Origin: Burkholderiaceae bacterium
GTDB lineage: Bacteria > Pseudomonadota > Gammaproteobacteria > Burkholderiales > Burkholderiaceae_C
Direction of reading: 5' to 3'
NCBI GenBank assembly: GCA_041913045.1
Contig: JAYSGB010000009.1
Span: forward strand, 9,566 to 73,565
Length of the DNA stretch: 64,000 bases
In this document: positions 5,775 through 22,155 of the stretch, one piece after another
Position numbering within the stretch: position 1 is the first letter of the stretch
Layout of the letters: each line of letters opens with the position of its first letter
Made by a program: the position numbers and the translations under genes
The notes under the pieces: model-generated
What the model was told of the DNA's origin: nothing
Database searches by the model: none
What the model saw: the letters and a program-made list of their open reading frames with translations, nothing else

Positions 5775-5851
5775 GGAGTGGTAGTTCAGTTGGTTAGAAT
5801 ACCGGCCTGTCACGCCGGGGGTCGCGGGTTCGAGCCCCGTCCACTCCGCCA
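5775..5851 (+). tRNA. tRNA-Asp (anticodon GTC)
   Basis: 77 nt: GGAGTGGTAGTTCAGTTGGTTAGAATACCGGCCTGTCACGCCGGGGGTCGCGGGTTCGAGCCCCGTCCACTCCGCCA. Near-identical architecture to E. coli tRNA-Asp. Confidence 0.95.
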
Positions 5852-6245: not shown

Positions 6246-7142
6246 TCACATGTTCGCTGTTTTCGGCTGTGCCGCGAGCCAGCGTTGCTCGTATTGCATG
6301 GGGCTGATGTAGCCCAGCGTCGAATGCAGCCTGCGGCTGTTGTACCAGAGCAGCCAGTCGATGACTTCATCCTTAGCGGCTCGGCGGGTTTGAAACCGCA
6401 TGCCATACAGCCGCTCCACCTTGAGTGACCCGAACAGGGTTTCGCTGCACGCATTGTCCCAGCAGTCGCCCTTGCGGCTCATGGAGCTGCGCATACCGTA
6501 GCCCTTGAGCAGGCCTTGGAAGTCGCTGCTGCAATACTGGCTACCCCGGTCGCTGTGGAAGATGAGGCCGCTGCGCTTGTCTGGGCAGCGGCGGAACCAC
6601 GCCATGCGCAGGGCGTCCATGACCAACTGGCGCGTCATGCGCTCACCCAGGCTCCAGCCCACCACCTGGCGGCTGAACAGGTCGATGACCACGGCCAGGT
6701 ACAACCAGCCTTCGTCGGTGGCGATGTAGGTGATGTCACCCGCCCAGGCCTGGTCGGGGGCCGCCACATTGAATCGACGCTCCAGCAGGTTGGGCGCCAC
6801 TGGCAAGTTGTGCCGACTGTTGGTAGTGGCCTTGAAACGCCGCTTGCCTCGTGCCTTGATGCCGTGTTGCTGCATGAGCTTGCGTACCCGGTCTTTGCCC
6901 ACCCGAATACCACGCGCAACCAACTCCTTCCACACCCGTGGCCAGCCGTAGCTGCCTTTGCTCTCGGCGTGGATGGCTTTGATGTGCACCAGCAAGGCAT
7001 CGTCGCTCAGGCGGTTGCGCTCAACGCCTTGTGCCTGGCGCGTGAAGTGCTGGTGGTAGCCGCCAGGGCTCACGCCCAACACTTCGCACATCACCGACAC
7101 CGGCCAGCGGCTACGCTGTCGCTGGATAAATGCGTACTTCAC
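6246..7142 (-). CDS. IS3-family transposase OrfB (DDE / rve integrase core)
   Basis: Motifs include WAGDITYI..WLYLAVVIDLFSR.VVGW, HSDRGSQY and NACSETLFGSLK.E, a typical IS3 DDE domain. Its GTG start overlaps the orfA stop (GTGA). It is probably made as an OrfAB fusion by -1 frameshifting. Confidence 0.9.
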   Translation of the reverse strand: MKYAFIQRQRSRWPVSVMCEVLGVSPGGYHQHFTRQAQGVERNRLSDDALLVHIKAIHAESKGSYGWPRVWKELVARGIRVGKDRVRKLMQQHGIKARGKRRFKATTNSRHNLPVAPNLLERRFNVAAPDQAWAGDITYIATDEGWLYLAVVIDLFSRQVVGWSLGERMTRQLVMDALRMAWFRRCPDKRSGLIFHSDRGSQYCSSDFQGLLKGYGMRSSMSRKGDCWDNACSETLFGSLKVERLYGMRFQTRRAAKDEVIDWLLWYNSRRLHSTLGYISPMQYEQRWLAAQPKTANM

Positions 7143-7432
7143 AGCGACTCTTTCGCGAAGTACGCCGTGGCCTTTTTTAGGATGTCGCGCTCCATCTTGA
7201 CCCGCGCCAACTCAGCACGCAACCGGCTGATTTCCATCTGCTCAGCACTCACCGGCTTGCTGTCCGCCCCTGTAAGCCGACCTTCCCGACTGGCCTTGAC
7301 CCAGTTGAACAAGGTCTGCTCCACCAGCCCAAGGCTGCGCGAGACCGCCGCCATGCTCTGCCCCGATTGCACCAGCCGCACCGCCTCCTGCTTGAACTCC
7401 AGCGTGTAGCGCGACCTCACCGTCTTCGTCAT
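7139..7432 (-). CDS. IS3-family transposase OrfA (HTH)
   Basis: Contains MTKTVRSRYTLEFKQEAVRLVQSGQSMAAVSRSLGLVEQTLFNWVK and a leucine-zipper-like C-terminus. Confidence 0.9.
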   Translation of the reverse strand: MTKTVRSRYTLEFKQEAVRLVQSGQSMAAVSRSLGLVEQTLFNWVKASREGRLTGADSKPVSAEQMEISRLRAELARVKMERDILKKATAYFAKESL

Positions 7433-7495: not shown

Positions 7496-8767
7496 TTTCT
7501 CTCCTGGGCGCTAGTGGATACCACCGCTGCGCTTACGCAGGTTGGCTCTTCAGCAAAAGAGACAGAGAGGGCGATCAGCGAGCTTCTTAAGGTCGCAGGG
7601 GGCAAATTTTTGACGTCTCTGGCGGGACTTTTCGCATCCATCGTCTGGACTTACAAGTCCAAAAGGGCATTGAATGAACTGAATGGTGCCTGTGGGGCAC
7701 TGTTGGAAGCTTTGAGCAGGCTCGCGCCACCAAACGGTGCCGAGTTGCTTTTGCGCCAAAAGCTGGAGGTCGCCAAGGACTCGTTAGGCCTATCCGAAGA
7801 GATGTTGACAGAAGCGCGGGAGCAGACTGGAACTTTCAAGCGGTTTGAAACAGATCTGGCGGTCACTTTAGCGGGGGCTATCACTAAGTCGTTCTCCCCT
7901 CAAATGGAAGCGATGACCGCTAAGTTGGTGGCATCCATTGATGGGCTCAGCGACAAGCTGGGAACAATGAATCAGGAAGCGCTGCAAAAGATGCTTCAAG
8001 ATTTCGCTGTCATGCTCAAACAGGAAACGGATTCGGAAATGGCTCAACTACGGCAAACCTTGTCTGAGTTGGCTGGAAAGCTCGAAGGTGCCGGTGCGAC
8101 ATTGGGTAAGGGGGCAGAGGGAGCGGCCACCGCAATCAACGATGCTGGCGCTCAGTTGGTTGCCAGAGTGCAAGAGATTTCACAGAACCTCTCAACTGGA
8201 GCCTCGAATTTGGAGGTTGCCGCTGGATCGGTGAAGCTGGCGATGAATGATCTGGAGGTAACCATGATGGAAGCATCCAACATCGGCAAGCGTGGCGCAC
8301 TTTTTGTGAACGAAGCACTGGAGAAAACAGGAAAAACCGTCCAAAGCCTTGATTCCATATCAGGTGGACTGGCAGATGCTGCGACCGCACTTCAGTCAGT
8401 AAGTGGGAAGATTGGCGAGGTGGTCGACAACGTCGAGGAACTGTCGCGTGAGCAAAGAGCTGTCGTATCAGCTGTGCGTGAGGTCGCCCCCGCTGCGCAG
8501 GCAGCGGTTGAGCGAGTCGCTTCGGTCCTCGAAGTGGCTGGCAGGCAATCTAAAGAGTCTATAGAAGCCACTGCAGCCACCTTGACGCGGACCGTCGCTT
8601 CTATCACCGAAGGGGTGACGTCGTATACAGACCAAGTGGCAGATCTTCACCGCAAGATGGACGGTCAATTGGCCAAGGCTGTGGGCAGTTTTGACAAAGG
8701 CGTCAGTGAGCTTTCGGAGTCTGTCGAAGAGCTGGCCGAAATCATGCAGAAGTCCAAGAGGGCGTGA
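7496..8767 (+). pseudogene. zorA: zorA (Zorya MotA/ExbB-like stator subunit), 5'-truncated at the IS3 boundary
   Basis: The reading frame is open from the first base after the IS end. Only one hydrophobic helix remains (FLTSLAGLFASIVWTY). It is followed by ~370 aa of Ala/Glu/Leu-rich coiled-coil-type sequence, as in a ZorA tail. The N-terminal membrane domain is absent. The call rests on context with zorBCD. Confidence 0.7.
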
Positions 8768-9510
8768 TCATGTTGCTACATCGGTCTACCTCTGAACATG
8801 GCCTAAGTGATGAACCGGAACACAGTTATCTTGCATCAGCAGCGGATTTGATGATCGGATTGCTTTTTGTGTTCATCATCATGGTGGCATTTCTTGCATT
8901 GCAGAAAAAGGCTGAGCAAGAAGCTCGTGCTGGCGACAGAGATCCTCGGGGTGCGGTCACGATAGCAATTGGTGAGGAAATTCGAAAGACTTTACCCACG
9001 GTCAAGGTGGACCCGTCTAGTGGGGTGATCACATTGCCGGAAGACTTGTTGTTTGATATAGGGAGTTCTGTGCTCAAGGAGTCGGCGGTTGAAAGGCTCG
9101 GAGAGACATCAAAAAAGTTAGCAGAGGTCTTGAGGTGTTTTGTCGCCAATCAAATGACTAAGTTAACGTGTAAACAGAATCCATTTGGTCATCAGATTGA
9201 GACCATATTTATTGAAGGTCATACCGATAGTCGGCCCATGAATCGGCTTGGTGGCAATATCAAGCTCTCTCTTGATCGCGCCATTTCGGTCAACGCGGCT
9301 CTGGTTCAAGGAACCTCTTTGTCTGGATTCAAAAACAAGAACGAACATCCTGTTTTTTCCTACAGTGCGTATGCGGAAAGCCGTCCTCTGATTAAGGAAG
9401 ATCCTTCAGATGGTCGGAATCGACGCGTCGACTTGAGAATCGTCTTGACATACAAGCCAGCCGATGCCGATACGCAAATTGATGCAGTGAGTTCAGCTGT
9501 TAAAAACTGA
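8764..9510 (+). CDS. zorB: ZorB (MotB/OmpA-like, peptidoglycan-binding)
   Basis: The N-terminal TM helix has the conserved Asp (SAADLMIGLLFVFIIMV). The C-terminal domain is OmpA-like (IFIEGHTDSRP....N..LSLDRA..V.....RRVDLRIV). Its start overlaps the zorA stop (GTGA). Confidence 0.85.
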   Translation: MIMLLHRSTSEHGLSDEPEHSYLASAADLMIGLLFVFIIMVAFLALQKKAEQEARAGDRDPRGAVTIAIGEEIRKTLPTVKVDPSSGVITLPEDLLFDIGSSVLKESAVERLGETSKKLAEVLRCFVANQMTKLTCKQNPFGHQIETIFIEGHTDSRPMNRLGGNIKLSLDRAISVNAALVQGTSLSGFKNKNEHPVFSYSAYAESRPLIKEDPSDGRNRRVDLRIVLTYKPADADTQIDAVSSAVKN

Positions 9511-9512
9511 AA

Positions 9513-10904
9513 ATGTTTACGCCCCTGCCTCAGTCAATGTCCAAATTGGAAGCGGCCGTGCAACTGCTCGACGACCCAGGGCTGCAGCCGCCACCGCCCG
9601 ACATCTTAGAGATCGGTGAGCGTCTGAGAAAAGTTTATGCGCGGGCGCGTTCAAATGGCTACACCGATATCAGTCGCAGTGAACTGCGTAAGTTGCCTTT
9701 TGCGTACTGGGCCTCCTCCTCTCCCGTACTTACCCAGGTTGAACCTGATCTCGTAAGTCAGTATTGGAATATACACCTTCCCCAGGCGTTGACCGCCAGT
9801 CCACGGCGTGCCAAGCGATGGTTGGCGCCGCTCTTCTTCGTCTACTGTGAGCGCTTTTCTCAAAAAGACAGCGAGTTTCTTGCCTTTGCGTCAAGGCTCG
9901 TACGCGCGATCCAGATGGCGCAGGGCTTGTTTGCCCAAAGGATGCAATTCCTTCAGTCGGAGTATCGATTTTTTAATCCAATCGAAGCTCCGAGTCGTTT
10001 GGCCAACTTTTTCTTTCTGAGTCGAACAAAGGCCTTGGATGCATTACTCAGCGATCTTCAACTTTGGCCAGGTTTCCTCGCGTCCGAATTTGGATCAGCT
10101 GTTTTTAAAGCAGGTCTCGGTGCTTCTGTGGAGAGTCTCCGGGATTCACAGACTGTTCATCGATTGCTGGATTGGGCAAGACGTGGACAGGTCAAAGTAG
10201 TCAAGACAGACCTACGTATTACGTTTGCTAACGCACTGTTGAGCTGCTGGGTCGGCCGTAAGCCCGTAGAGTCTTTGAAGAATGTCTTAGTGGATCATTT
10301 TTTGAAGGAGTACGGCGACCCCCGATTCCAATCTCATCTTCACTATCAGTGGGATGGTGTTTCTCAGCAAGCCAAAGGAGTCATTCTCAATTGGTTGACT
10401 GGTGACACATTGCGCGGCTTTATGAAGTTGCTGCAGCGCACTGCGGATGATATTTGGCAGTATCGACAGAAGTTCTGGATGGCGTACTACGAGAGGGGAT
10501 ATATCGATGAAGCATGGATGGCTCTTGGAGACACAGCATGGTGGGCTGCTCAGAGCCTAAAAGCAGATGAAAAGGGAATGGGTTGCGCACGTTTGGATGG
10601 TGGCGCGGCGAGCAATCAATCCGTTCTGATCCTGAAGATTGGGGGCCTCGTTTTTACTGAATGGAGTCACAACGGCAGCTTGCGTGCTTATCGTGAAGGT
10701 AGTCCGGAAGCGCCGACGCTTTACAAGTCCAGTTACCACGGTGCGGACCTGCGATCGGCAACGTCACTTGATTTTCACGACGGCATGAACATGAATCCTG
10801 AACTTCGACACATGAACGCTGAGGGTGGAACTTGGCAACGCAAAGCAAGAGATTTCATTCGTCGACAAACCAACGTGCATTTGAGTGATTCGGAGATTTT
10901 GTGA
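9513..10904 (+). CDS. zorC: ZorC-like protein (EH-signature-domain candidate)
   Basis: A 463-aa protein in the position between zorB and the SNF2 helicase. It has a possible E..H signature (FTEWSHNG). The assignment rests mostly on conserved Zorya type I gene order. Confidence 0.65.
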   Translation: MFTPLPQSMSKLEAAVQLLDDPGLQPPPPDILEIGERLRKVYARARSNGYTDISRSELRKLPFAYWASSSPVLTQVEPDLVSQYWNIHLPQALTASPRRAKRWLAPLFFVYCERFSQKDSEFLAFASRLVRAIQMAQGLFAQRMQFLQSEYRFFNPIEAPSRLANFFFLSRTKALDALLSDLQLWPGFLASEFGSAVFKAGLGASVESLRDSQTVHRLLDWARRGQVKVVKTDLRITFANALLSCWVGRKPVESLKNVLVDHFLKEYGDPRFQSHLHYQWDGVSQQAKGVILNWLTGDTLRGFMKLLQRTADDIWQYRQKFWMAYYERGYIDEAWMALGDTAWWAAQSLKADEKGMGCARLDGGAASNQSVLILKIGGLVFTEWSHNGSLRAYREGSPEAPTLYKSSYHGADLRSATSLDFHDGMNMNPELRHMNAEGGTWQRKARDFIRRQTNVHLSDSEIL

Positions 10905-13717
10905 ATCTTGACTTGACTCCACACGGTGTGACGTGGCTTCTCAGTAATACCGTCTCTAATTGGCAAGCGTCTCTGCCCATTCAGGCGGCGACGGCTTTGA
11001 ACGATTTCCTTGCCGAGCACATGGAAGTGCTTGATCAGACATCCCTTACTGTGCCAGCGGAGATCGTTGCGTCATGGTCGGAGGTTGCAGCATTGCAGTT
11101 GGGTCTTCCATCGAATTGCCCGCTCGCTTTTGATGTGCGTCTTTCTGGTGCGATGGGTAAGCCTGGTGCGCAAATCAGTGTTCGGTGGCTTCAGCCAGGT
11201 AAAACTATCTCAGCTCGTGATGTTTCAATTGATAGACTTTGGTTGAACTATCAGGGGAAAAAATACAGGGTTAACTCACCAATTTATGACGTGCTGGGTC
11301 TTGTCGAGCGATTTAACAAGACACTGGACGCGACCATCGAGGAGCAGTTCCGTCTTTGGGCTGACATTCGGACTGCCTTGGGTGATTCTGGGGCCGAGAA
11401 GCTCACCGACAGTTTTTTGCGGTCTTTCCGGGTGATCTCGGCCTCAGCGTTGACCTTCTCGATAAGAACAGATGCGCGTGGGGAAGTGCAGCTAGATCCT
11501 GTTCTGTTGACCGAGAGGGGTGAGAGCGGTGACGGAACATCCGCACTCGTTCGTGCTTTGTCTGAAGTGGATGAGGAGCTTTTCCCTCAGAGGTTGGATC
11601 AGTTGCGCGAAGGGGTGCCAGCGTTCCCCTTAAGTCAGGGTACCTATGTCGTTGCCGATGAGCCTTTGCAGCGTGCATTGGCGGCGGTGCGTAAGCTCAG
11701 GAAGGCTCCTGCAGAGCAGCGCAAGCGTGCTGCAATGTATCCCGAAGCGGTTATTCGCGAATTGATGGAGGCCGAAGAGTCAGAGCCAACGGTTTTTGTC
11801 GAGACTGAAAAGTTCGCCGAGCGTGTTCGTGATGTCGGTGAGTGGTCTGCACCGGTGTTGCCATGGATCAAGATTTCCCCTCAAAAGTGGGATGCACCAC
11901 AGTCTGGTGGTATTCGAATTGACGGGGTTGATTTGCCACTTGACCAGTCGGCTGTGGCGCAGGCTGTACACGACATACAGGCTGCAATTTCTGAGGGCAA
12001 GCCGTCTATCACCGTCGGTGGTCAGAGCATTCCCGCTACTTCGGCGAATGCAAGCGCGCTGGGTCAGCTGTACAGAGCCATGACCAAACCTCCTGGAGAG
12101 TCTGGCACTGAAACACCTGATGATCCTTCAGTCAAAAACGTCCTGATCATCGAGACCAATTTCGATGAAACCTCATTTACCCGTACATCCCTTGGCAAAC
12201 GTGCTGGCTATGAGCGACTGCCGCATGGCTTGAAAACAAGCCCCAAAAAACACCAGGAGCTGGGTTTGAGTTGGCTCCAAAAGCACTGGATTGAAGGCAG
12301 CAGAGGAGCCATGCTGTGCGACGACATGGGCTTGGGTAAGACCTTCCAGGCACTCGCTTTTTGTTTGTGGCTGCACGAGTGCATGGATGAAGGTTTGTTG
12401 CCGAAGAAGCCTTTGCTGGTTGTCGCTCCTGTTGGTCTTCTGCGAAATTGGGAGTCCGAGATCGATGAGCACCTCTTTGCTCCCGGCCTTGGGGACATGG
12501 TTCGCGCCTACGGCGATCATCTCAAATCGCTTCGGCGAGGTCGGCATCTGGATGGTACAGCTGGACTGGACACTGCACGGTTGGCCTCTGCCAATGTGGT
12601 GCTCGCCAACTATGAAGCGGTATCGGATTATCAGTTGAGTTTTGGAGCCGTACCTTTTGCTGCGGTAGTGTTGGATGAGGCGCAGAAGATCAAATCGCCG
12701 AAGGCTCGGATGACGCACGCCATTAAGGGGTTGAATGCGGATTTCATGCTGGCTATGACAGGAACGCCAATTGAGAATCGTTTGGCCGATCTTTGGTGTA
12801 TCGCGGATGCAGTGCAGCCAGGCGCACTCTCCGACCTGAAGGAATTTAGCGCAACCTACGAGGTCGAGGGCGCCAATGTTCAGCAACTGCGAGAACAGGT
12901 GTGGCAGGAGGAATCTGACATCCGACATGTGCCGAAGCTGCTCTTGCGACGTCTGAAAACTGAAAAGCTTGATGGACTTCCGGCCAAGCATGAGCACTTG
13001 TTGAAGATCCCGATGCCAGCCCGTCAGTTAGAGGCGTACAAGCGTGCACTGGCTATGAAGGAGATATCTGGGCCTGCAGGTACATTAGGGATGATCCATG
13101 CTCTCAGACGTGCGTCGTTGCACCCCGCATTGATTGAGGGCGGTGCTAAGGCCTCTGAGTTGAAGGTAGAGGATTCAGCACGGTTTATTGCCCTGATGCG
13201 TATCTTGGATCGGGTGGCAGAGGGTGGCGAGAAGGTCTTGGTTTTTCTGGAGTCGTTGGACCTTCAGGATGCGGAGCAGTTACCCCTGCTTTTGCAGCGC
13301 CGCTACGGATTGCCCAAATCGCCCATGGTCATCAATGGGCAGGTCAGCACCGAGGTTCGGCAGCAGCGTGTCAACGCCTTTCAGCGTGATAAGGGCTTTG
13401 ACGTGATGCTGCTATCTCCAAAGGCGGGTGGCGTGGGGCTAACGCTGACAGCGGCCAACCACGTTATTCATCTGTCCCGGTGGTGGAACCCTGCAGTGGA
13501 GGACCAATGTTCAGATAGGGTTTACCGAATCGGTCAATCCAAGCCTGTTCACATTTATTACCCTCTGGCGGTCTTGCCGGGTCGCGAGGAACACAGCTTT
13601 GATTGGCAGCTGCAGATCCTAATGGATCGGAAACGTAAGCTGGCGTTGAATCTTCTGTCTGCGCCTGCGTTTACCCACGAGGATTATCAAACTCTTGTGG
13701 CTGGTATCCAAAAATAG
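10901..13717 (+). CDS. zorD: ZorD (SNF2-family helicase)
   Basis: SNF2 motifs are present: DDMGLGKTFQALAF, VVLDEAQKIKSP, MTGTPIENRLADLW and LLSPKAGGVGLTLTAANHVIHLSRWWNPAVEDQCSDRVYRIGQ. It has a long N-terminal extension. Its GTGA start overlaps the zorC stop. Confidence 0.85.
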   Translation: MNLDLTPHGVTWLLSNTVSNWQASLPIQAATALNDFLAEHMEVLDQTSLTVPAEIVASWSEVAALQLGLPSNCPLAFDVRLSGAMGKPGAQISVRWLQPGKTISARDVSIDRLWLNYQGKKYRVNSPIYDVLGLVERFNKTLDATIEEQFRLWADIRTALGDSGAEKLTDSFLRSFRVISASALTFSIRTDARGEVQLDPVLLTERGESGDGTSALVRALSEVDEELFPQRLDQLREGVPAFPLSQGTYVVADEPLQRALAAVRKLRKAPAEQRKRAAMYPEAVIRELMEAEESEPTVFVETEKFAERVRDVGEWSAPVLPWIKISPQKWDAPQSGGIRIDGVDLPLDQSAVAQAVHDIQAAISEGKPSITVGGQSIPATSANASALGQLYRAMTKPPGESGTETPDDPSVKNVLIIETNFDETSFTRTSLGKRAGYERLPHGLKTSPKKHQELGLSWLQKHWIEGSRGAMLCDDMGLGKTFQALAFCLWLHECMDEGLLPKKPLLVVAPVGLLRNWESEIDEHLFAPGLGDMVRAYGDHLKSLRRGRHLDGTAGLDTARLASANVVLANYEAVSDYQLSFGAVPFAAVVLDEAQKIKSPKARMTHAIKGLNADFMLAMTGTPIENRLADLWCIADAVQPGALSDLKEFSATYEVEGANVQQLREQVWQEESDIRHVPKLLLRRLKTEKLDGLPAKHEHLLKIPMPARQLEAYKRALAMKEISGPAGTLGMIHALRRASLHPALIEGGAKASELKVEDSARFIALMRILDRVAEGGEKVLVFLESLDLQDAEQLPLLLQRRYGLPKSPMVINGQVSTEVRQQRVNAFQRDKGFDVMLLSPKAGGVGLTLTAANHVIHLSRWWNPAVEDQCSDRVYRIGQSKPVHIYYPLAVLPGREEHSFDWQLQILMDRKRKLALNLLSAPAFTHEDYQTLVAGIQK

Positions 13718-13921: not shown

Positions 13922-14524
13922 TCAAATCGCCGCAGCCCAGTCGGTGATGGCGCGTGCAAGTTTTTGGCCGGCCTGCCCAGATGGCTCGATCGGTGACGCC
14001 TCGGAAAAATCCGCCGCCTCGGTCAGCAGTGTGCGAAGGTCGAGGATGTCAAAGCGGTGTTGCATTGCGCTACGAGTCACCACATCATTGAAAACCGACA
14101 GCGCGGTCTCAAGGGCCGGGGTCAGTCCCGGCACGGCGTCGTAAATCGTACAGACCAGGGTAGGCAGTCGGCGCTCGGACACTCGATCCATAAGGTAATC
14201 GTAGTGACTCGTGAAATCCGTCTGGATGTGGTTCAGGTGCGCCAGGGCTTCCATCACGGAACTCACCGGGTGGTCTAGGGTGGGCAGCCATGACAGGGCA
14301 TCGTTACCACCGACGCTCAGCACCAGATGGGTCGTGCTCTGAGGCAACCGCTGCAACTGGGCATGCACCTGCCGCGTCACATCGCCGTCGACGGCCAGCA
14401 GGGTACAGGCGTGTGGGGATTTCAGCGTACGATGAAGGTGTTCTAGGACAGATTCGGAGGGCGCCACGTAGCTGGCGTTGTCGAAGATGGAGTCGCCCAG
14501 GAGAGCCAGATGGTGGGAGTTCAT
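13922..14524 (-). CDS. SGNH/GDSL-like hydrolase-fold protein (atypical block V)
   Basis: Block I is LLGDSIFDN and block III is SVGGNDA. The position normally occupied by DxxH reads SPIEPS. Confidence 0.65.
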   Translation of the reverse strand: MNSHHLALLGDSIFDNASYVAPSESVLEHLHRTLKSPHACTLLAVDGDVTRQVHAQLQRLPQSTTHLVLSVGGNDALSWLPTLDHPVSSVMEALAHLNHIQTDFTSHYDYLMDRVSERRLPTLVCTIYDAVPGLTPALETALSVFNDVVTRSAMQHRFDILDLRTLLTEAADFSEASPIEPSGQAGQKLARAITDWAAAI

Positions 14525-14609
14525 GGGTTCACATTCCTTAGTGATTGCCGCCAGAAAGAAGGGGGTGTCTGTCGTTTCTCGAAGCGTCTGCGCTGAGTTT
14601 GGGATGTGT

Positions 14610-15578
14610 TCATGAATAGGCCCGAATGGCCTGGGCCAGTTCCGCCTTAAGGGCGCTTCTCAATTCCTTGGGCTCCAGCGCCTCGACATGCGCCCCGTGA
14701 CGGAGAACGTCTAGCGTCAACTCCCTCAGGTCCGTGTATGGCAGCCGCATCTCCATGCGCCCGTCCGTGAGCCACGTGATTTCCTGCTTCGGGTGCCACA
14801 TCTCCCTTGATACCCAGCGTGCCCGCTCAGCCGAGAACCGCAGCCGCGCCCACTGCACTTCTCCACCAGAAAATATCCCGTACCCTTGTCCAACGAACTC
14901 CTCGAGCGCCCGCTCATCCACCTCCCGGCTCTTGACTTCCAGCAGGTGCACTTCTTCCATCGAGTCGAGGGCAAAGGAGCGCAAGCCGCCTCGCATGTGG
15001 CACCACGCTACGAGGTACCAGTTGCCCCGGTAATGCACCACCACTTGGGGTGAGACCACCCGTTCGCTTCGTTCGTCCCTGGCCCGGACGTAGTACCGCA
15101 GCGCTAACTGGCGGCGGGTGAGGAGGGCGGTGGCCACCATTTCGAAGTGCTGAGCCGCCACCGCACGGTGACCGGTGGTCAGCAGACGGAAGCGCTTCTC
15201 CACATCGTCGGCCGCGTGCTGGCCGGATTCAATCAGGGCCCGCAGCCGTGCTTTCAACGGTTCAACCTGTGCCTTGAGCAGCGTCGGCTGCAGGTCGGAC
15301 AGCATCGCCTGCATCATCAAGAGCGCGTAGGCCTCCTGGGCGTTGAACCAAAGGCCTGGCAGGTTCTGGGTTTCTGCCGCACCGTCCTGCTCGTACCGAT
15401 AGCCCCGCGACTCCCGGTCCCAGACGATGGGGTAGTTCAGCCGGTCGCGCATGTACTCGATGTCGCGCTTGAACGTTGCCCGGGAGACCGCCAACATTTC
15501 CAGCATCGTGCCGATGGGCACCGATCGCCCGCCTTGTAACAGGGCGTCGATTTTGTAGAAGCGCTCGGTCCGGTCCAT
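14610..15578 (-). CDS. WYL-domain transcriptional regulator (HTH-WYL-WCX architecture)
   Basis: The N-terminal HTH is MLEMLAVSRATFKRDIEYMRD. The central WYL motif is VVHYRGNWYLVAWCH. It has a C-terminal extension domain. Length is 322 aa, typical of BrxR/CapW/PafBC-like regulators. Confidence 0.85.
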   Translation of the reverse strand: MDRTERFYKIDALLQGGRSVPIGTMLEMLAVSRATFKRDIEYMRDRLNYPIVWDRESRGYRYEQDGAAETQNLPGLWFNAQEAYALLMMQAMLSDLQPTLLKAQVEPLKARLRALIESGQHAADDVEKRFRLLTTGHRAVAAQHFEMVATALLTRRQLALRYYVRARDERSERVVSPQVVVHYRGNWYLVAWCHMRGGLRSFALDSMEEVHLLEVKSREVDERALEEFVGQGYGIFSGGEVQWARLRFSAERARWVSREMWHPKQEITWLTDGRMEMRLPYTDLRELTLDVLRHGAHVEALEPKELRSALKAELAQAIRAYS

Positions 15579-15579
15579 C

Positions 15580-16383
15580 TCAGAGCAGCCTCACCGTTTC
15601 CAGGTCGGCCTTGCCGCCGTAGAACTGCTTCAGAGCCAAATGGAACACCGAGTGCGGTGCGGCCGATGCCCGTTCAAAAAGCGTCGCGCAGGAGCGAAAC
15701 TTCATCGCATCCACCGTCCCGAAGATGTCCTCTGCCCGACGGTTGGGGTGCTGCAGGATCAGGCGGAAGCACTCGTGCAGCCGCCGACCCAGTAAGGGGT
15801 GCTCCAGATACGCCCGGGCCTCGTCCAAGTCCACGATGCCGTACCTCTGGGCTTTCCTAGAGTGACCCAGCCCGTGTAGCTGCGGAAACACAAACCACAT
15901 CCAGTGCGTTTCCTTGCGACCGGCCCGAAGTTCCTCCATCGCGGTGTCGATGACTGGCGCCTGGGCCTGCACAAAGCGCTCCAGACCTGCGGGTGTCATT
16001 GTGCGACGCTGAGTCACCCTCTCAAGACCCGGCGGCTGTTGCCAATACTCACCGGACGAGTAGACCGGCCGTTCGAACCGCTTTACCCGTCGGAGGGGAA
16101 ACTGGGGCAATCCGGCCACCGCCCGAAATCCCGGCTGTTCACTGAGCGGCGTGAAGCCGTTGAACGCCAGGGCATGCTCGGCCTGAGCTGCATTCGCGTA
16201 CACCACTTCATCGAACACCAAACCGTGGTCATCGAAGAACAGGATGGACGTACCCGTCTGAGCCGACGAATCGGCCGTGCAGGCCTCGGCCAATATTGCC
16301 CAGTTCTGCTGCAGCATGCCTGTGACCTTGAACCACAGCGGTCCTCGGGGCAAGTCCAGCAGTTGAGCCTGTGGTCTGGCCAT
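15580..16383 (-). CDS. DUF1810-domain protein with an unknown ~130-aa N-terminal domain
   Basis: The C-terminal half matches DUF1810 as I recall it: LERFVQAQ, HWMWFVFPQLHGLGHS, AQRYGI..LDEARAYLEHPLLG.RL, FGTVDAMKFRSCATLF and QFYGGKADLETV. I prefer the start at 16383 (AAGGA upstream) over 16407. The gene ends 1 nt before the WYL start codon. Confidence 0.7.
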   Translation of the reverse strand: MARPQAQLLDLPRGPLWFKVTGMLQQNWAILAEACTADSSAQTGTSILFFDDHGLVFDEVVYANAAQAEHALAFNGFTPLSEQPGFRAVAGLPQFPLRRVKRFERPVYSSGEYWQQPPGLERVTQRRTMTPAGLERFVQAQAPVIDTAMEELRAGRKETHWMWFVFPQLHGLGHSRKAQRYGIVDLDEARAYLEHPLLGRRLHECFRLILQHPNRRAEDIFGTVDAMKFRSCATLFERASAAPHSVFHLALKQFYGGKADLETVRLL

Positions 16384-16428
16384 CTTCGTCCTTGGTGAAT
16401 TCGGCATGTATTCAGGTTATCTTGTTTA

Positions 16429-16449
16429 GTGGCTCATGCTGTGAGCCAC
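16429..16449. promoter_or_regulatory. perfect 8-5-8 palindrome (GTGGCTCA-TGCTG-TGAGCCAC), candidate operator
   Basis: It lies in the 123-bp divergent intergenic region between the DUF1810-WYL-SGNH operon and the COG3904-like / HExxH-HicA gene pair. Its function is inferred only. Confidence 0.35.
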
Positions 16450-16506
16450 ATGTCTGCCAATACTACCCCTATTGCAATCACTGTCTTATGGAGGTGGGGT
16501 GCTCAC

Positions 16507-17520
16507 ATGAAAGTTACCCTGCGCTTGCCCAAACTGGCCCGTCGCGACTACGTATCTCCCAGGTCCAATAATTGGCCAGGCATGAGGCAGTTCTTGTGTC
16601 TGCATTGGCGGGGTGAACTCGGGCTGTTTCGGACTCTGGTGGTTGCACTCTGTGTGGTGTTTTTGCCGACCACCTTGATCCTTTTTGGGGCCTTTCTGCT
16701 CAGCCTGGCCTTTCATCCCGAAAGCAAGCCCGTGGACATGATTTTTCGCCTTGGCTCCGCGGCACTGTTGCCCGCCATGTTCTGGTGGGCCGGGGGAACG
16801 TACCGCAAGTCCATGAACCTCCTGACCGAGTCGAGGACGGCGGCAGCTCTTCTCACATTTCTGATGGCTGGATTTGGAATCTGGATGCTGTGTGGTACGA
16901 CCAGGGAAGTCATCCAAGATAACTGGAAATCCCCCAGCGCCTACGAGCGTATGCTCAGCGAATGCGAGCGACGTGCAGATAAATGGATTTCGAAGCCTTG
17001 GGCCGTCACGGCGATGCCTGAACTCAACCGGATCGTCGTGAGCGGGAGCATTGGGGAAGGCAGCGCCAAGGCGCTAGAGCGAACGATCATGGATAACCCG
17101 CACCTAAAGCTTCTGCAGCTTGATTCCCCTGGGGGACTGGTTCATGAGAAAGAACTCATCATCGAGATCGTAAGAAAGCATGGCCTGGATACCCTTGTGC
17201 AAGGCCGTTGCGTGAGCGCTTGCACCGGCATCTTTCTAGCCGGTGAGCGCCGCTTTATCACACCAGATGCACGATTTGGCTTCCACCGTGCGGGCTACTG
17301 TGGACTACCGCGAGAAGCGCCCTGGATGATTTCGGACTACATGACCTCGATCTACTACCGCGAGCGTGGTGTTGAGGAGGGCTTCATGCAGGAGGCGATG
17401 GAAACACAGTATCACGACCTCTGGCGGCCCAGCGCCCTCGAGGTGAAGCTGGGCAAGTTCGCAACGCACTGGTGGTCAGAAAGGCCGGAAGAGTACAGCC
17501 GCGCGGCATTCATGAAATGA
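16507..17520 (+). CDS. membrane protein with a ClpP/S49-like (COG3904-type) C-terminal domain
   Basis: GGAGGTG lies 9 nt upstream of the ATG. There are three hydrophobic helices in the first ~150 aa. The C-terminal domain reads IVVSGSIGEGSAKALERTI..NP.LKLLQLDSPGGLV.E...I..IVRKHGLDT.V.G.CVSACTGIFLAG..RFI.P.A.FGFHRAG. This resembles the ClpP/SppA-type xDSPGG fold. Confidence 0.6.
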   Translation: MKVTLRLPKLARRDYVSPRSNNWPGMRQFLCLHWRGELGLFRTLVVALCVVFLPTTLILFGAFLLSLAFHPESKPVDMIFRLGSAALLPAMFWWAGGTYRKSMNLLTESRTAAALLTFLMAGFGIWMLCGTTREVIQDNWKSPSAYERMLSECERRADKWISKPWAVTAMPELNRIVVSGSIGEGSAKALERTIMDNPHLKLLQLDSPGGLVHEKELIIEIVRKHGLDTLVQGRCVSACTGIFLAGERRFITPDARFGFHRAGYCGLPREAPWMISDYMTSIYYRERGVEEGFMQEAMETQYHDLWRPSALEVKLGKFATHWWSERPEEYSRAAFMK

Positions 17521-17583: not shown

Positions 17584-19521
17584 ATGAACAGCCCAAGCAA
17601 CAGCCCCCCGCGGCTGCGAAGCTGGATTCCACCCAGCTTCGCATGGACGACTGCACCTGACGTGTTCTGTATTGATGTGCCGATCACCGATCCTGACGTT
17701 GTCGAATTAATATCAACTGGCTCGCTTGAGGTAACCATCTACGGAACTAAGGCCACAGCGCGAGCATTAGCCCGTCTGCGAAGCGGTACCGGGCTAATGG
17801 GAGAACTGGAGCAAGCGGTTTGGTCTCCTGACAAGCTCAAAACGACCGACTCACGCATTAGCCCCGGTACAAAGGTTATCGCGTATTGCTACGGTGTGTT
17901 TTTGCTGCCTGGCGACAAGACCCTATGCGTGCTGGTGGGCCGATCGAAGCCGTTTGTGCCGGATGCCTGGATATCGCCTACCCTCAAAGCCAGTGCAGAT
18001 GCGCTGCTTCTGGAGCATCGGGCCAAGGTCGCCGAATTCGACGATGCGATCAGTCGTAAGAAGCAGGACAACGAGGACTTCTACGGCCGCAACGGTGACA
18101 TGAAGAAGTTCGAAGGGTTCGCCCAGGCGCAGTTGGCGATGGAGAGCCAGTTTCAGCGCCCGGTTGTGACTGCGGAGCGGCTACGGACTTTCATGCTACG
18201 TGCCGTGAAGTTCCCACAGCCTACTTCGGGTGACACGGAGAAGCTGGCACGTTCAGCAGTTTCCGCGGTCGCCGCATCTGGCTGGCCACCTTCCCGTGAT
18301 GGCAACTACGTCGGCATTCTCCCCGGCACTGCTGGGCGCCGCGCGCAAGGCCTCATCTCATGGGTGCCCCACTCAGGCTTGCCCTCGTACCCGGAAGTCC
18401 GCTGGGCCGTTCAAAGGCGCTTGCCTGCGGCACTGCGCAAGCCGCGTAGGGAGAATATGGGTCGTCCCAACTTCGACACTGGCGCTCAGGCGGTGGTGGA
18501 GTCGGTTCAGGCCCAGAGCTTTGTTCCGGAGGCGAACGACCTCATGGATTCGCTGGGCGATCTGGAGCTCGACCAAATCGATTACCGTGACCGGGTTGAC
18601 GGCGTTCGCAAGGGCTTAAAGGGACAGGGCTTCGAGGCCATTGCCTGGTTCCAGCCCTATCACGTCTGGACCGAGGAAACGTGGGGCATCTACGTCGACG
18701 CCCGAAAGCTGGACGACCTGGCGCTCAGCTTTCTGAACGACTTCAAGCTGGCGCATGTTAGTGGGTCGCACAGCCTCGCTGCGCTGCTGGCCTTTGGCCT
18801 GACCTACGCCCACGAGCTGTTCCACGCTCGGGTGGAGGCCGCACTTTCGTGGCTGGAGATCAACGCCCAGCAGCCGCGACACCTGCGCTACCAGGACCGC
18901 GTCTACCAAGCGCTGCGCGAAACGCCCGACTGGCTTGAAGAGGCGCTGGCCAACTGGTCAGCATGGGACTGGTTTAAAGCACCTGGCATCCAGTCGTTGG
19001 TGGCACGCATGGCGTCGAACATTGAGGGCCTGGACCGGGTCGTCGAAGGAGCTCTCGACCTCGCACCACCTGGGTATCAGGAGTGGCGCCTGGGACATCA
19101 GGCTGCCACATGGCGCACCTTTGCCAACCAGTTAAGCACTGCCAACCCCAAGACCAACGCCACCAGCATCGGCCTGCCGCTTGAAAGCGCGCTGACCGGC
19201 CCGCTGCCGTACGACTTCCAGCCCGCCGACATCCCTTTGCGTTTTGTGGGCCCCGGGGTCATCGCTGACCGTCTCCAGAGCCACCCGGCCACGTTCAACG
19301 TGCCGCCTCGCCGCGAGCTTGAGCGGGCGCTAAGACACTTCCGCCACAGCCTGGACGCATCAGGCGGCAAAGGCGGCCACCAGAAGTGGACGGGGCCGGA
19401 TCAACGTGCCTTCATTCTTCCAACGCGCGACCCGGTGAGCCCGGGCGTCTTCAAAACGTTCCTGCACCACGTGGGCATCGACAAAGCTACCTACGTGCGT
19501 CAAGTTCGACCTAATCTCTGA
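17584..19521 (+). CDS. 645-aa multidomain protein: unknown N-terminal region, HExxH zinc-peptidase-like motif, C-terminal HicA-like domain
   Basis: GGAG lies upstream of the ATG. YAHELFHARVE is followed ~38 aa later by EEALANW, a gluzincin-like spacing. The last ~70 aa (LERALRHFRHSLDASGGKGGHQKWTGPDQRAFILPTRDPVSPGVFKTFLHHVGI) align by eye with the HicA/YcfA toxin pattern. The first ~400 aa match nothing I recognise. Confidence 0.6.
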   Translation: MNSPSNSPPRLRSWIPPSFAWTTAPDVFCIDVPITDPDVVELISTGSLEVTIYGTKATARALARLRSGTGLMGELEQAVWSPDKLKTTDSRISPGTKVIAYCYGVFLLPGDKTLCVLVGRSKPFVPDAWISPTLKASADALLLEHRAKVAEFDDAISRKKQDNEDFYGRNGDMKKFEGFAQAQLAMESQFQRPVVTAERLRTFMLRAVKFPQPTSGDTEKLARSAVSAVAASGWPPSRDGNYVGILPGTAGRRAQGLISWVPHSGLPSYPEVRWAVQRRLPAALRKPRRENMGRPNFDTGAQAVVESVQAQSFVPEANDLMDSLGDLELDQIDYRDRVDGVRKGLKGQGFEAIAWFQPYHVWTEETWGIYVDARKLDDLALSFLNDFKLAHVSGSHSLAALLAFGLTYAHELFHARVEAALSWLEINAQQPRHLRYQDRVYQALRETPDWLEEALANWSAWDWFKAPGIQSLVARMASNIEGLDRVVEGALDLAPPGYQEWRLGHQAATWRTFANQLSTANPKTNATSIGLPLESALTGPLPYDFQPADIPLRFVGPGVIADRLQSHPATFNVPPRRELERALRHFRHSLDASGGKGGHQKWTGPDQRAFILPTRDPVSPGVFKTFLHHVGIDKATYVRQVRPNL

Positions 19522-19838: not shown

Positions 19839-20948
19839 TCAACGAGCTGGAGCCGCAGAGCGACTCTTGCGGCGATCGTAGACCGTTTTGATCATTTTTT
19901 CACTGCGATGCAGCGTCGCGTCTTGAACGTCCGTATGTCCCGCTGTGAGTTTGTCGGTCACCCCTTTCGGGCGTACATCAAGCAAGCTGAAGCGTTCGAA
20001 GGGAATGCCGCGTGCTTCAGCTTCGACCGCGCAAGCCCGCATCAATCTCCTGAGGGTCGCTTTCCACCCGCCCTTGGTGTAGCGAGTGCCGCTTTGCGTG
20101 CGAAAAATCAAGCCTTCATCCGGGATGCAATTGTGTCCATCTAGTGCCATCACCTGCTGGATGATGTCCTTCATTCTCGGTGTCCAATGAATCGTCACAT
20201 CCCTTTTTTTCTGATTGCGCTTGGTCTTCTTTTCCGTCCAAACCAGACCCTCAGGCTGGACCATCGACCATTTCGCTTCCAGCACTTCGCCGGGCCGCCG
20301 CAGACACAGGTAACCCATGGCCAAAGCCAATGAGGCTCGGAGCAGTTGCCCTCCTTTCTTTGCGCCAACTTCGAGTACCAATTCAAGTTCCTCATCTTTG
20401 ACGTAACGTGTGCTGGGGGAAGTGGGAAGCTTCTCAATGTCGTTAAGGGGATTGCTGTCGATCAGGCCCTTGCGCACAGCGCGCTTGAGGATCAACTGAA
20501 AGAGCTGAATTTCCTTGTTTCCCTTGGGCCCACGTCCCAACTCATCACACTTGTCCAGGTAGGAGTAAGCGTGATGGGGCCGGATGTCGGTGATCAGCAT
20601 TTCACCGAAGACAGTCATCAAAGTCTTCGCTTCGCGCTCGTTTTCTTCAATCGTGGAGTCGGCACGTTTGTTCGGGCTCTTGGCGGGCAGCGCACGTTGC
20701 CACTTGAACCAGTCGGCGGTCAATTGCGACACAGTCTGGATTTCTTCACCGGTCTCCGAATACAAAAGCGCTCGCTTGGTCGCCTCGTTCCGCAGCCGCT
20801 TGATCTGATTCTTGTCGTTGATCGGGCATGACAGTCGAAACGCCCAAGTGCCATCTTTTCGCTTGTAGCCAATGGAGTAGGTTTCCACCCCGCTGCGCTC
20901 ATAGACGCGATGGGGCAGACCATCATGGGTTGCACGCACGCGACTCAT
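19839..20948 (-). CDS. int: tyrosine-type site-specific integrase
   Basis: A 369-aa protein with a C-terminal catalytic region: LCLRRPGEVL (Arg I), LLDVRPKG (box region) and TLHRSEKMIKTVYDRR (His and the Tyr nucleophile). It sits next to the island's right-hand att repeat. Confidence 0.85.
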   Translation of the reverse strand: MSRVRATHDGLPHRVYERSGVETYSIGYKRKDGTWAFRLSCPINDKNQIKRLRNEATKRALLYSETGEEIQTVSQLTADWFKWQRALPAKSPNKRADSTIEENEREAKTLMTVFGEMLITDIRPHHAYSYLDKCDELGRGPKGNKEIQLFQLILKRAVRKGLIDSNPLNDIEKLPTSPSTRYVKDEELELVLEVGAKKGGQLLRASLALAMGYLCLRRPGEVLEAKWSMVQPEGLVWTEKKTKRNQKKRDVTIHWTPRMKDIIQQVMALDGHNCIPDEGLIFRTQSGTRYTKGGWKATLRRLMRACAVEAEARGIPFERFSLLDVRPKGVTDKLTAGHTDVQDATLHRSEKMIKTVYDRRKSRSAAPAR

Positions 20949-21241
20949 TGCAACCTCGCAAACTTATCGAGGGCGTCAAAGCGAGGCTGGCGTGCCGTGG
21001 CTTTCGATGCCTTTTCCTGCATCTTTTGAACGAAGACAAATCGCGCCACGCGCGGGTAAGAACTCTTACCCATCGCATTGGTGTAAGGCCAGTCGTTGGC
21101 GTCCAGCCAGTAGCGTTGTCGGGAGGGCTGCCGGCTGCCCGTGAGAGCGGTCAATTCCTCGCGCGTCAGCAGCAGCGACTGCCCCTCATCCGCAGAGTGC
21201 GGCGGGGTAGAAGCTTTACCAATGTGACCGGAACGAAGCAT
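20945..21241 (-). CDS. DUF4224-like small phage/island protein
   Basis: The LLLTREELTALTGSRQPSRQRYWLDANDWPY pattern is typical of DUF4224 proteins found immediately upstream of integrases. It overlaps the integrase start. Only the last 98 codons of the 372-aa track ORF look credible. Confidence 0.6.
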   Translation of the reverse strand: MLRSGHIGKASTPPHSADEGQSLLLTREELTALTGSRQPSRQRYWLDANDWPYTNAMGKSSYPRVARFVFVQKMQEKASKATARQPRFDALDKFARLQ

Positions 21242-21430
21242 GCAAGTCGTGTGAGTTGCGATGGCTTCGAGTCTCGAGGCGATTTTTGATACGCAGTACC
21301 TCACACCCAATGTCGCGATACAATCTCGTCGTTTTTCTTCCGATTTGAGGGGCGGGAGTTGCTCCTGATGTGTAAGGCTGGCCGCCAGATTTGGGTGGCG
21401 TGAGGACTGGATGGCAAAGGAAGGTGAGGT

Positions 21431-21874
21431 TTGAGCTTCTTCAGAAACACGGAAAGTGAGCGCCGGTGCGCTGAGCGCATGCTTGCTATCCAGCGAGGGT
21501 GGTACCCGATCGATTCCGACGAATTCAGCGTCGATGAAATTGCAGATCGATACCAAGTGCATCGGGATACCGTTTACAAAGGCGTGCGCTCTGGCAGCCC
21601 ACTTTTCCCCAAAGCGACCCGAAAGCGGACAGGTCCCAAAGCCTGGCTGTACTTCTCTTCTGAGGATGTCCGGGATTGCGATCAGAACCGTATTGCCTTC
21701 TACCAAACCACCCCGTCCTGGAAAGTCTTGACCGGGCAAGAGGCCAAGGCTGCGCCCCCGAGGCGGTCGGCTAAAGAAGTCCTGAAGGGGCAGGCAACCC
21801 AGGTCCGAAAAAACGCTGGGAAGATGGGTGCAGCCGGGCCCGAAAAACGCTCCAACGCGGGGGCTCAGAAATGA
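21431..21874 (+). CDS. excisionase-like HTH DNA-binding protein (MerR/HTH_17-like)
   Basis: FSVDEIADRYQVHRDTVYKGVRSG resembles an excisionase-family HTH. The C-terminus is basic. A TTG start follows a strong AAGGAAGGTGAGG, with an alternative ATG at 21479. It lies between the integrase and the att repeat. Confidence 0.45.
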   Translation: MSFFRNTESERRCAERMLAIQRGWYPIDSDEFSVDEIADRYQVHRDTVYKGVRSGSPLFPKATRKRTGPKAWLYFSSEDVRDCDQNRIAFYQTTPSWKVLTGQEAKAAPPRRSAKEVLKGQATQVRKNAGKMGAAGPEKRSNAGAQK

Positions 21875-21880
21875 GTCAAG

Positions 21881-21942
21881 TTTTGGAATATCCCTTTTCG
21901 CTACGAGGGGGATTTGGAGCAAAAAACGGCCATTTTGGAATA
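21881..21942 (+). promoter_or_regulatory. direct repeats TTTTGGAATA x2 (plus ATTTGGA), candidate integrase arm-type sites
   Basis: TTTTGGAATA occurs at 21881-21890 and 21933-21942, and GATTTGGAGC at 21911-21920. All lie just inside the right att core. A related CCATTTTTGGGG occurs at 6172-6183 near the left end. Confidence 0.3.
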
Positions 21943-21981
21943 AGAATCGGCCGCAAACCCGCATGGATACTCGCATGACCC

Positions 21982-22155
21982 CCGGCCTGTCACGCCGGGG
22001 GTCGCGGGTTCGAGCCCCGTCCACTCCGCCATACCTAATTACAAAAAGCCGTTGTAAATCCATGACTTACGACGGCTTTTTCCTTTGCGCGTTACACCGT
22101 TTACGCACCAGTGTTGCTGCCCCGAAGCGGCCTCGAAGAAGTAGCCACGGTGGAG
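21982..22155 (+). repeat. direct repeat B, copy 2 (attR-type: 3'-terminal 50 nt of tRNA-Asp plus flank)
   Basis: See the entry for copy 1. The 5' part of the tRNA is absent here: the preceding sequence GCATGGATACTCGCATGACC is unrelated to the tRNA. Confidence 0.9.

Follow-up and report, generated by a model that had tools for sequence, protein, structure and literature searches.

DriD (Caulobacter), DdaA (Acinetobacter) and PafBC/SiwR (mycobacteria) are transcription factors with the domain order HTH-WYL-WCX that sense single-stranded DNA (ssDNA) and activate damage and defence regulons, and promoters lacking a -35 element, with the site of the transcription factor in its place, have been described for these factors (PMC12392091, PMC10693628, PMC10853764). 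DriD, DdaA and PafBC control recA, uvr and similar core genes. BrxR and CapW, repressors of BREX, CBASS and defence islands, have the same three-domain architecture and palindromic promoter operators; CapW also senses ssDNA (PMC11662680). A third type of system involving WYL factors was predicted in section 3.8 of Iyer et al. 2022 (PMC9503650) as a counter to viral ADP-ribosylation centred on ADP-ribosylglycohydrolases (ARG): these ARG-centric systems combine ARG, a phosphatase, a WYL/Nudix transcription factor, chaperones including vWA proteins, Macro/NADAR proteins, restriction endonucleases and helicases. Here, these systems were compared with a locus of a Burkholderiaceae bacterium (assembly GCA_041913045.1, contig JAYSGB010000009.1), contained in a stretch of 64,000 nucleotides (positions 9,566 to 73,565 of the contig; hereafter “the window”, whose own numbering is used below). 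A minus-strand operon in this window encodes a protein in which an N-terminal domain (Ndom) is fused to DUF1810, a WYL transcription factor and an SGNH-like protein; a pair of divergent genes lies on the other side of a palindrome. As judged from its sequence, the locus is a WYL-controlled damage or defence regulon of a novel variant form. The anatomy and regulatory logic of an island-borne WYL regulon with exchangeable cargo are the solid part of this prediction; ssDNA as the signal, activation by the WYL factor, and removal of ADP-ribose-type adducts by the cargo are proposed beyond it, with strength decreasing in that order.

Regulator, box and promoters

The three minus-strand genes described in an earlier, sequence-only reading of the window were present in the list of open reading frames (ORFs) and in the Pfam results, with the gaps given there: 1 nt between the fusion gene and the WYL gene, and 85 nt between the WYL gene and the SGNH-like gene (Table 1). 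Profile searches located all three expected domains: DUF1810 (PF08837, full profile, residues 141-275 of the 275-aa ORF, E 5.7e-54), WYL (PF13280, residues 144-211 of the regulator, E 2.7e-22) and WCX (PF25583, residues 241-317, E 4.4e-16). The HTH_11 match of the regulator (E 5e-4, 20.3 bits) was under Pfam's 25-bit cut-off; the full-length WYL model of PADLOC spanned residues 3-306, and only generic WYL models matched. The fusion gene probably begins at M9 (position 16383) and so encodes 267 aa, because an AAGGA Shine-Dalgarno sequence precedes that ATG, 267 aa is the length of most homologues, and the distance between palindrome and ATG is then equal to that in three related loci (L003, L022 and L024). 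The WYL gene starts 1 nt past the stop codon of the fusion gene, so co-transcription, and with it self-control of the regulator, is probable.

Among solved structures, the WYL protein matched PafBC (E 1.6e-19), PafC (E 1.9e-11) and DriD (7TZV, 7U02, 8TP8 and 9PFQ, E ~4e-11), whereas CapW was matched at E 1.4e-4 over 79 residues only, and no structure of BrxR was found at E <= 0.001. At the level of sequence similarity the regulator is thus far closer to the ssDNA-sensing activators PafBC and DriD than to CapW. The sequence-only reading had drawn an analogy with the BrxR/CapW repressors, which these values and the absence of a -35 element from the promoters (see below) do not bear out. Nine DriD residues that contact ssDNA have been listed (PMC10853764); in the alignment, six of them were identical in the window's factor (Y168, R176, R178, R189, Y192 and R204) and W206 was conservatively replaced by F. 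The spacing of the half-sites in the palindrome was that of DdaA (GCTCA-N5-TGAGC in the window, CGWCA-N5-TGWCG for DdaA; PMC12392091), though the half-site sequence itself (GTGGCTCA) differed from those of DriD, DdaA and PafBC. Given the conserved DriD contacts and this DdaA-like geometry, ssDNA would be a reasonable candidate for the signal of the window's WYL factor.

The perfect 8-5-8 palindrome GTGGCTCA-N5-TGAGCCAC, reported by the sequence-only reading between the two divergent units, was exact, and no second copy with up to 2 mismatches was found in the window (0.04 matches expected from shuffles). Loci encoding relatives of Ndom or of the window's WYL protein were compared. The 8-nt arms of the palindrome, hereafter the box, were identical in L003 (Extensimonas perlucida), L004, L010 (a Tepidimonas metagenome-assembled genome), L024, L025, L026 and L205 (Variovorax), and L022 contained two sites, one with identical arms and the other with one mismatch. 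Where a WYL gene was present in these identical-arm loci, its product was 62-95% identical to that of the window. A variant box, (C/G)TAGCTCA-N5-TGAGCTA(C/G), was found in L001 and L207, whose WYL regulators were 59% identical. The spacers varied between loci (CAGCA, TAGCG, TGACG, TAGAA, TGGCA) and the flanking DNA had diverged. The box was located 45 nt upstream of the ATG of the fusion gene in the window, L003, L022 and L024, and separate WYL genes had a box of their own ending 18-38 nt before the ATG (L001, L024, L205 and L207), so that the box was present both upstream of the operon containing the regulator and in front of separate regulator genes, that is, in the regulator's own promoter and in its targets. 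DriD homologues, too, are preceded by a box of their own, at a distance of ~17 nt (PMC10853764). The exact box pattern was also present in 84 stretches of IMG/VR, which served as a control; a WYL homologue was near none of them. Because the arms were kept in diverged loci in which spacer and flanks differ, the palindrome is very probably the operator of the WYL factor, as the sequence-only reading had suggested.

Two hexamers resembling -10 elements, TAACCT on the side of the fusion gene and AATACT on the divergent side, each start 9 nt past the box. The first was conserved as TAAYCT in the aligned promoter regions of six loci, and the second was shared by the window, L022, L024 and L205 (CATACT in L004). 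We infer that both are -10 elements; if so, the box covers about -42 to -22 of both promoters and the -35 position falls within the variable spacer. A simple sigma-70 scan of the intergenic region predicted no promoter, which fits the absence of a -35 element. Promoters without a -35 element are typical of activator-dependent control. This absence, together with a transcription factor site in the place of the -35 element, favours activation over repression as the probable action of the WYL factor. The box has a conserved -10-like element at the same distance on either side and is kept in diverged loci, so the suggestion that one regulator serves both divergent units, through one site, is well supported by the comparison. 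The window thus resembles DriD, DdaA and PafBC in having a box over the -35/-26 region of the regulator's own promoter, and differs from them in using one box for two symmetric divergent promoters and in carrying the regulator on an island with mosaic cargo.

The same observations bear on an explanation by incidental adjacency, in which DUF1810 would serve a housekeeping role and the palindrome would have arisen by chance or form a hairpin of the terminator type. DUF1810 is commonly encoded by stand-alone genes without conserved neighbours, and single chromosomal copies of the WYL subfamily (~60% identity) occur among ordinary or metabolic genes, as this explanation would have it. The fixed distance between box and fusion gene in diverged loci, the recurrence of the box before separate WYL genes and the low number of chance matches expected in the window argue against it; moreover, fusion gene and WYL gene are separated by 1 nt in L003 and L004 as well, and in L022 that very position after the fusion gene is occupied by what is left of a decayed WYL gene (32 codons). 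The comparative data contradict incidental adjacency, which we regard as highly improbable. The WYL subfamily comprises more than 5,000 database proteins at E <= 1e-30, the closest named ones being from Burkholderiales genera, and for this subfamily the locus provides a precise putative operator and a two-way promoter layout.

Conserved box and exchangeable cargo

Only in a close relative, Extensimonas (L003), were all five genes found in the order of the window, at ~90% identity; the block is flanked there by housekeeping genes on one side and a helicase-rich segment on the other, and is not beside Zorya. The three genes, or the five-gene block, proposed by the sequence-only reading as a set are therefore not a fixed conserved unit: elsewhere, the cargo was different, and the constant part was the box plus Ndom-DUF1810, with or without a WYL gene directly behind. 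The operon opposite Ndom-DUF1810 was a different one in L004, L022 and L024, with genes for a 137-aa protein, MerR, VIT/vWA and then an SGNH-like and/or SprT-like protein. The WYL gene of L024 was 6.5 kb off, with its own box, and no WYL homologue was found in the examined DNA of five Ndom-DUF1810 loci (L005, L007-L009 and L011) from the Limnohabitans/Hylemonella group and unclassified Betaproteobacteria. In L004 and L024/L025, orthologues of the SGNH-like protein (50-57% identical) were again encoded within the box regulon, but elsewhere in it; that this gene keeps to the regulon yet shifts its position supports a functional link and opposes a fixed trio. One regulator with one box would accordingly move between genomes with interchangeable cargo.

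These differences in cargo also concern a second explanation, in which the WYL protein would, like BrxR and CapW, repress a new three- or five-gene anti-phage system until infection. Its resemblance to BrxR and CapW lies in predicted domain architecture, occurrence in defence islands and the palindromic promoter operator. The locus is indeed part of a mobile island beside Zorya, defence genes abound in the related loci (Hhe, Mokosh-like helicases, PD-T4-1-like NOV_C proteins, type I restriction-modification), a box overlapping core promoter elements could block RNA polymerase, and the ssDNA sensing of CapW would be compatible with the signal proposed above. However, the similarity to CapW is weak and that to BrxR below detection, the promoters lack a -35 element as activator-dependent ones do, the gene set is not kept as a unit, and none of the window's genes evidently codes for a toxic effector. 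Neither does the cargo belong to a recognised defence system, as the fusion protein, the SGNH-like protein and the 338-aa and 645-aa products of the divergent genes had no match in PADLOC-DB 2.0. We consider a repressor of this kind unlikely. Of the candidate stress or defence system put forward by the sequence-only reading, what stood was a mobile WYL regulon, and what fell was the fixed gene set.

Some further features of these loci were observed. L022 contained two copies of the MerR-VIT/vWA module, with a box for each. The commonest gene divergent from the subfamily box encoded a small protein (~135-166 aa) with the motif VRxQQRG(I/V)..VLDCL(L/V)AYGR; this family is absent from the window, had no match in PADLOC and none in the precomputed Pfam annotations (no dedicated Pfam scan was made). 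The contig of L004 (JBKBQD010000011.1) was binned as Fimbriimonadaceae, yet it has genes typical of Comamonadaceae, for an SGNH-like protein, Ndom-DUF1810 and a WYL protein with 74% identity to that of the window, which may reflect either horizontal transfer or a binning error. In the Limnohabitans group, a gene for a ~650-aa protein precedes Ndom-DUF1810 (L006 7903-9861; L009 7893-9857; L008 1-1698), and the protein of L006 matched DUF2779.

Table 1. Position of the features of the window and of the related loci (positions without a locus name refer to the window)
Feature	Position	Strand	Remarks
Putative operator palindrome GTGGCTCA-N5-TGAGCCAC	16429..16449	.	Centred at ~-32 of both predicted divergent promoters
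-10-like hexamer TAACCT (family consensus TAAYCT)	16414..16419	-	Fusion-gene side of the box
-10-like hexamer AATACT	16459..16464	+	Divergent side of the box
Ndom-DUF1810 fusion gene	15580..16383	-	267 aa from M9; ORF open to 16407 (275 aa)
Predicted HTH-WYL-WCX transcription factor gene	14610..15578	-	322 aa; Pfam and PADLOC matches
SGNH-like gene	13922..14524	-	200 aa; Lipase_GDSL_2, E 1.8e-8
First divergent gene	16507..17520	+	Predicted membrane protein, 338 aa; ATG at 16507
Second divergent gene	17584..19521	+	645 aa; HELFH motif; C-terminus HicA-like by eye
MerR-VIT/vWA-SGNH-like/SprT-like operon	L004 5069-9859; L022 3636-7943; L024 3862-7884		From the same box
Small-protein family (VRxQQRG motif)	L001 12026-12433; L004 9470-9859; L022 7443-7943 and 14160-14603; L024 7471-7884; L205 ~6511-6921		
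attL, left copy of 50-bp direct repeat	5802..5851	+	3' end of tRNA-Asp
attR, right copy of 50-bp direct repeat	21982..22031	+	
Integrase-like ORFs, two in tandem	19839-20948; 20945-22063	-	Just inside attR
ZorA, ZorB, ZorC, ZorD	7514-13717		PADLOC

Ndom, DUF1810 and a possible ADP-ribose link

Ndom spans roughly residues 10-116 of the 267-aa protein, is characterized by the motifs LWFKVTGMLQQNWA, FFDDHG.VFD, NGF and RPVYSSGEYW, and had no match in Pfam, NCBIfam or PADLOC. A profile built from 32 sequences recovered 469 cluster representatives at E <= 0.001, most of them stand-alone proteins of ~100-115 aa; the two-domain Ndom-DUF1810 architecture was common to ~90 homologous clusters. The domain was encoded in 19 of 185,579 species genomes only, scattered over many phyla. 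The AlphaFold2 models of Ndom and of the whole fusion protein had predicted local distance difference test (pLDDT) values of 87.8 and 88.3 respectively, and Ndom was modelled as four beta strands followed by two helices. A fold search gave no match below E 0.3 in the PDB or among the BFVD viral models, the Ndom profile found no PDB sequence at E <= 10, and when 71 members were scanned against Pfam with relaxed thresholds, only scattered noise was obtained, in which Imm59 was the most frequent family (3 of 71, E >= 0.06). By these searches, Ndom is a candidate new small domain family without a Pfam model. A WGR-like fold, suggested by a weak BFVD match, was dropped after hhalign against the WGR domain of PARP1 (an approximate sequence) returned a probability of 0.2%. 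Neither Ndom nor DUF1810 is a protein of phages: in 50,697 phage genomes, tblastn detected Ndom 0 times and DUF1810 once, and Ndom was found in only 4 of 2.9 million IMG/VR contigs.

Fusion partners were identified as Pfam families among the 45 longer Ndom members. DUF1810 was found in 7, ADP_ribosyl_GH in 3 and NUDIX in 2, and the following were seen once each: Macro, PARG_cat_microb, PTP-SAK (a DSP phosphatase), Nmad2, DUF429 and a DUF4011/AAA_11/AAA_12/MTES_1575 helicase-nuclease, which is Hhe-like. ADP-ribose- or NAD-metabolism domains were thus carried by 8 of the 38 longer proteins without DUF1810, far above any background frequency, and the partners of this family are mostly ADP-ribose-processing enzymes. 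As it does before DUF1810, Ndom occupied the N-terminus in the fusions with ARG, PARG, NUDIX and Nmad2 (P0207, P0238, P0214, P0156, P0235 and P0234), P0207 and P0238 being the fusions to ADP-ribosylglycohydrolase. This arrangement suggests that Ndom may be a targeting or sensing module. Nucleases and helicases were also associated with it: in L001 (3438-10348), the gene for an Hhe-type helicase-nuclease of 2187 aa (PADLOC Hhe, E 9e-302) shares 1 nt, at its stop codon, with a gene encoding Ndom alone; the 1871-aa protein P0199 has Ndom at the N-terminus of a similar Hhe-like helicase; and genes for PD-(D/E)XK-type nucleases were neighbours of Ndom in L002 and L024 (NOV_C) and in L018 (a weak PDDEXK_5 match). 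The window shares Ndom with these Hhe-associated loci and differs from them in having no Hhe gene.

The DUF1810 domain of the window was closely related to Rv1873 of M. tuberculosis: the fusion protein matched the sequence of PDB entry 2JEK at E 2e-41, and the domain model was superimposed on it with a TM-score of 0.93 and a root-mean-square deviation of 0.8 Å (Foldseek E 1.2e-12; 57% identity over 134 aligned columns). 2JEK is the crystal structure of Rv1873, available since 2007. Invariant polar residues of the 267-aa fusion protein include E151, K157 and D225. Rv1873 is a single-domain protein, whereas here DUF1810 is fused to Ndom under WYL control. No functional study was found in the literature on DUF1810 and Rv1873, and we know of no role assigned to them. 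Two contexts are suggestive in this respect: in L011, an ADP-ribosylglycohydrolase gene directly follows Ndom-DUF1810, and in a single case, L029 (5001-6324), DUF1810 is encoded alone by a gene that overlaps one for SIR2 (sirtuin) and adjoins LigD and Ku. As DUF1810 occupies the slot behind Ndom that is held elsewhere by ARG, PARG or NUDIX, these two cases and the fusions hint at ADP-ribose or NAD-derived substrates, and provide a weak lead tying DUF1810 to ADP-ribose or to adduct removal. The domain could hydrolyse or bind adducts of ADP-ribose type, or related ones, that are attached to nucleic acid or protein, and the Ndom fusion pattern would be the first contextual clue to the function of the Rv1873 family.

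The explanation that we favour as a whole, with an even chance of being right in full, is an island-borne WYL regulon of the PafBC/DriD/DdaA type, activated by ssDNA and carrying a cargo of ADP-ribose type. A dimer of the transcription factor would bind the box, which would replace the -35 elements of two back-to-back promoters; ssDNA arising from DNA damage or phage attack would bind the WYL domain, and the factor would then activate both promoters, one for Ndom-DUF1810, the regulator and the SGNH-like gene, the other for the membrane protein and the HExxH protein. Ndom would target or sense, and DUF1810 would act on ADP-ribose-type adducts. A more specific proposal, rather doubtful in our opinion, is that DUF1810 is an unrecognised enzyme or binder of ADP-ribose-type adducts, delivered to its substrate by Ndom as an adaptor that serves ARG, PARG, Macro and NUDIX enzymes as well, and that its ssDNA-induced, WYL-activated expression would allow host DNA, RNA or protein to be stripped of ADP-ribose or a related modification during phage attack or toxin action, as a mobile counter to ADP-ribosylating enzymes alongside Zorya.

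Several observations weigh against the favoured explanation. The two remaining ssDNA contacts of DriD are lost in the window's factor (S172 to A and R207 to A), and a box over the -35 region could equally be a repressor site acting by occlusion. Ndom was also fused to TruD (one case) and to DUF429 and adjoins nucleases, so the common theme may be nucleic acids in general. Among 56 same-strand neighbours from 80 metagenome loci, stand-alone DUF1810 had no recurrent partner, with no ADP-ribose enzyme in the 25 commonest families, and its five plasmid contexts were equally varied, often among mobile genes; the lead therefore comes from the Ndom fusions and the two single cases of L011 and L029. 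The DUF1810 fold is unlike any known ADP-ribose hydrolase, the only PDB match by Foldseek being 2JEK, and the scan of the window's genes revealed no ADP-ribosyltransferase, ADP-ribosylglycohydrolase or phosphatase.

Part of these data would be explained by a mobile DNA-damage repair regulon without any ADP-ribose role, in which an ssDNA-sensing activator controls the processing of adducts or DNA-protein crosslinks and Ndom binds nucleic acids in general. The nearest relatives of the regulator, PafBC and DriD, are activators of the damage response, the same box elsewhere drives genes for a SprT-like protease, VIT/vWA, MerR, RmuC, NOV_C and helicases, and the fusions of Ndom to TruD, Nmad2, DUF429 and a helicase-nuclease, like the DUF1810 gene beside LigD and Ku, would find a place in such a regulon. 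It leaves aside the ADP-ribose or NAD domains in the longer Ndom proteins and the ADP-ribosylglycohydrolase gene behind Ndom-DUF1810, and is in our view somewhat unlikely.

The pattern bears a close resemblance to the ARG-centric systems, several traits of which were recognised in the window and its relatives: a WYL factor in the window; in L004, L022 and L024, genes for vWA, NOV_C and helicases that the same box controls or that lie close to it; no coupled ADP-ribosyltransferase among the genes scanned; mosaic and fast-shuffled neighbourhoods; and the fusion of Ndom to ARG, Macro, NUDIX and a DSP-type phosphatase. The window differs from them in having neither ARG nor the phosphatase among the genes scanned, with DUF1810 in that place. 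The main text of PMC9503650 does not mention DUF1810; of the TY-Chap1-3 and ARPP families described in that paper, ARPP has a conserved Cys that Ndom lacks, and Foldseek gave no chaperone-like match for Ndom. If the ADP-ribose link is true, Ndom and DUF1810 would be extra components of the predicted host systems reversing viral ADP-ribosylation.

Other genes of the locus and the island

The SGNH-like protein and its homologues form a family in which the GDS, Gly and GGND blocks (GDSIFDN, VDGDV and SVGGNDAL) were invariant in four homologues. Block V was replaced by an invariant SPIEPS, no His was conserved after residue 66 of the window's protein, and the Pfam alignment of Lipase_GDSL_2 ended before block V. 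A canonical SGNH hydrolase is not supported, since the His of the block V DxxH motif is missing; the family may have a non-canonical or non-catalytic SGNH fold. Neither protein of the divergent pair matched Pfam, NCBIfam or PADLOC. The membrane protein had relatives in L003 (90% identical) and beside the WYL gene of L001 (28%), and the HELFH protein had a 90%-identical homologue in L003. No copy of the window's fusion or WYL protein was found by exact-sequence look-up in the contig index.

The sequence-only reading had placed the locus beside Zorya, and PADLOC (ZorA-ZorD) and the tRNA-Asp repeats agree with this position in a mobile defence island. A 16.2-kb island bounded by the 50-bp repeat contains Zorya I, the WYL operon, the divergent pair and two integrase-like ORFs; the WYL locus therefore belongs to mobile accessory DNA. 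The integrase-like ORF 19839-20948 had a weak Phage_int_M match in Pfam (E 0.0028), and ORF 20945-22063 had none in Pfam, PADLOC or NCBIfam. The ORF encoding ZorA (7514-8767) is only 417 aa long and aligns with the PADLOC ZorA profiles from about position 160 onward, and ORF 6516-7409, upstream of it in another frame, had no ZorA match. ZorA may accordingly be truncated or split, and the Zorya system defective. Similar hairpins follow both att copies.

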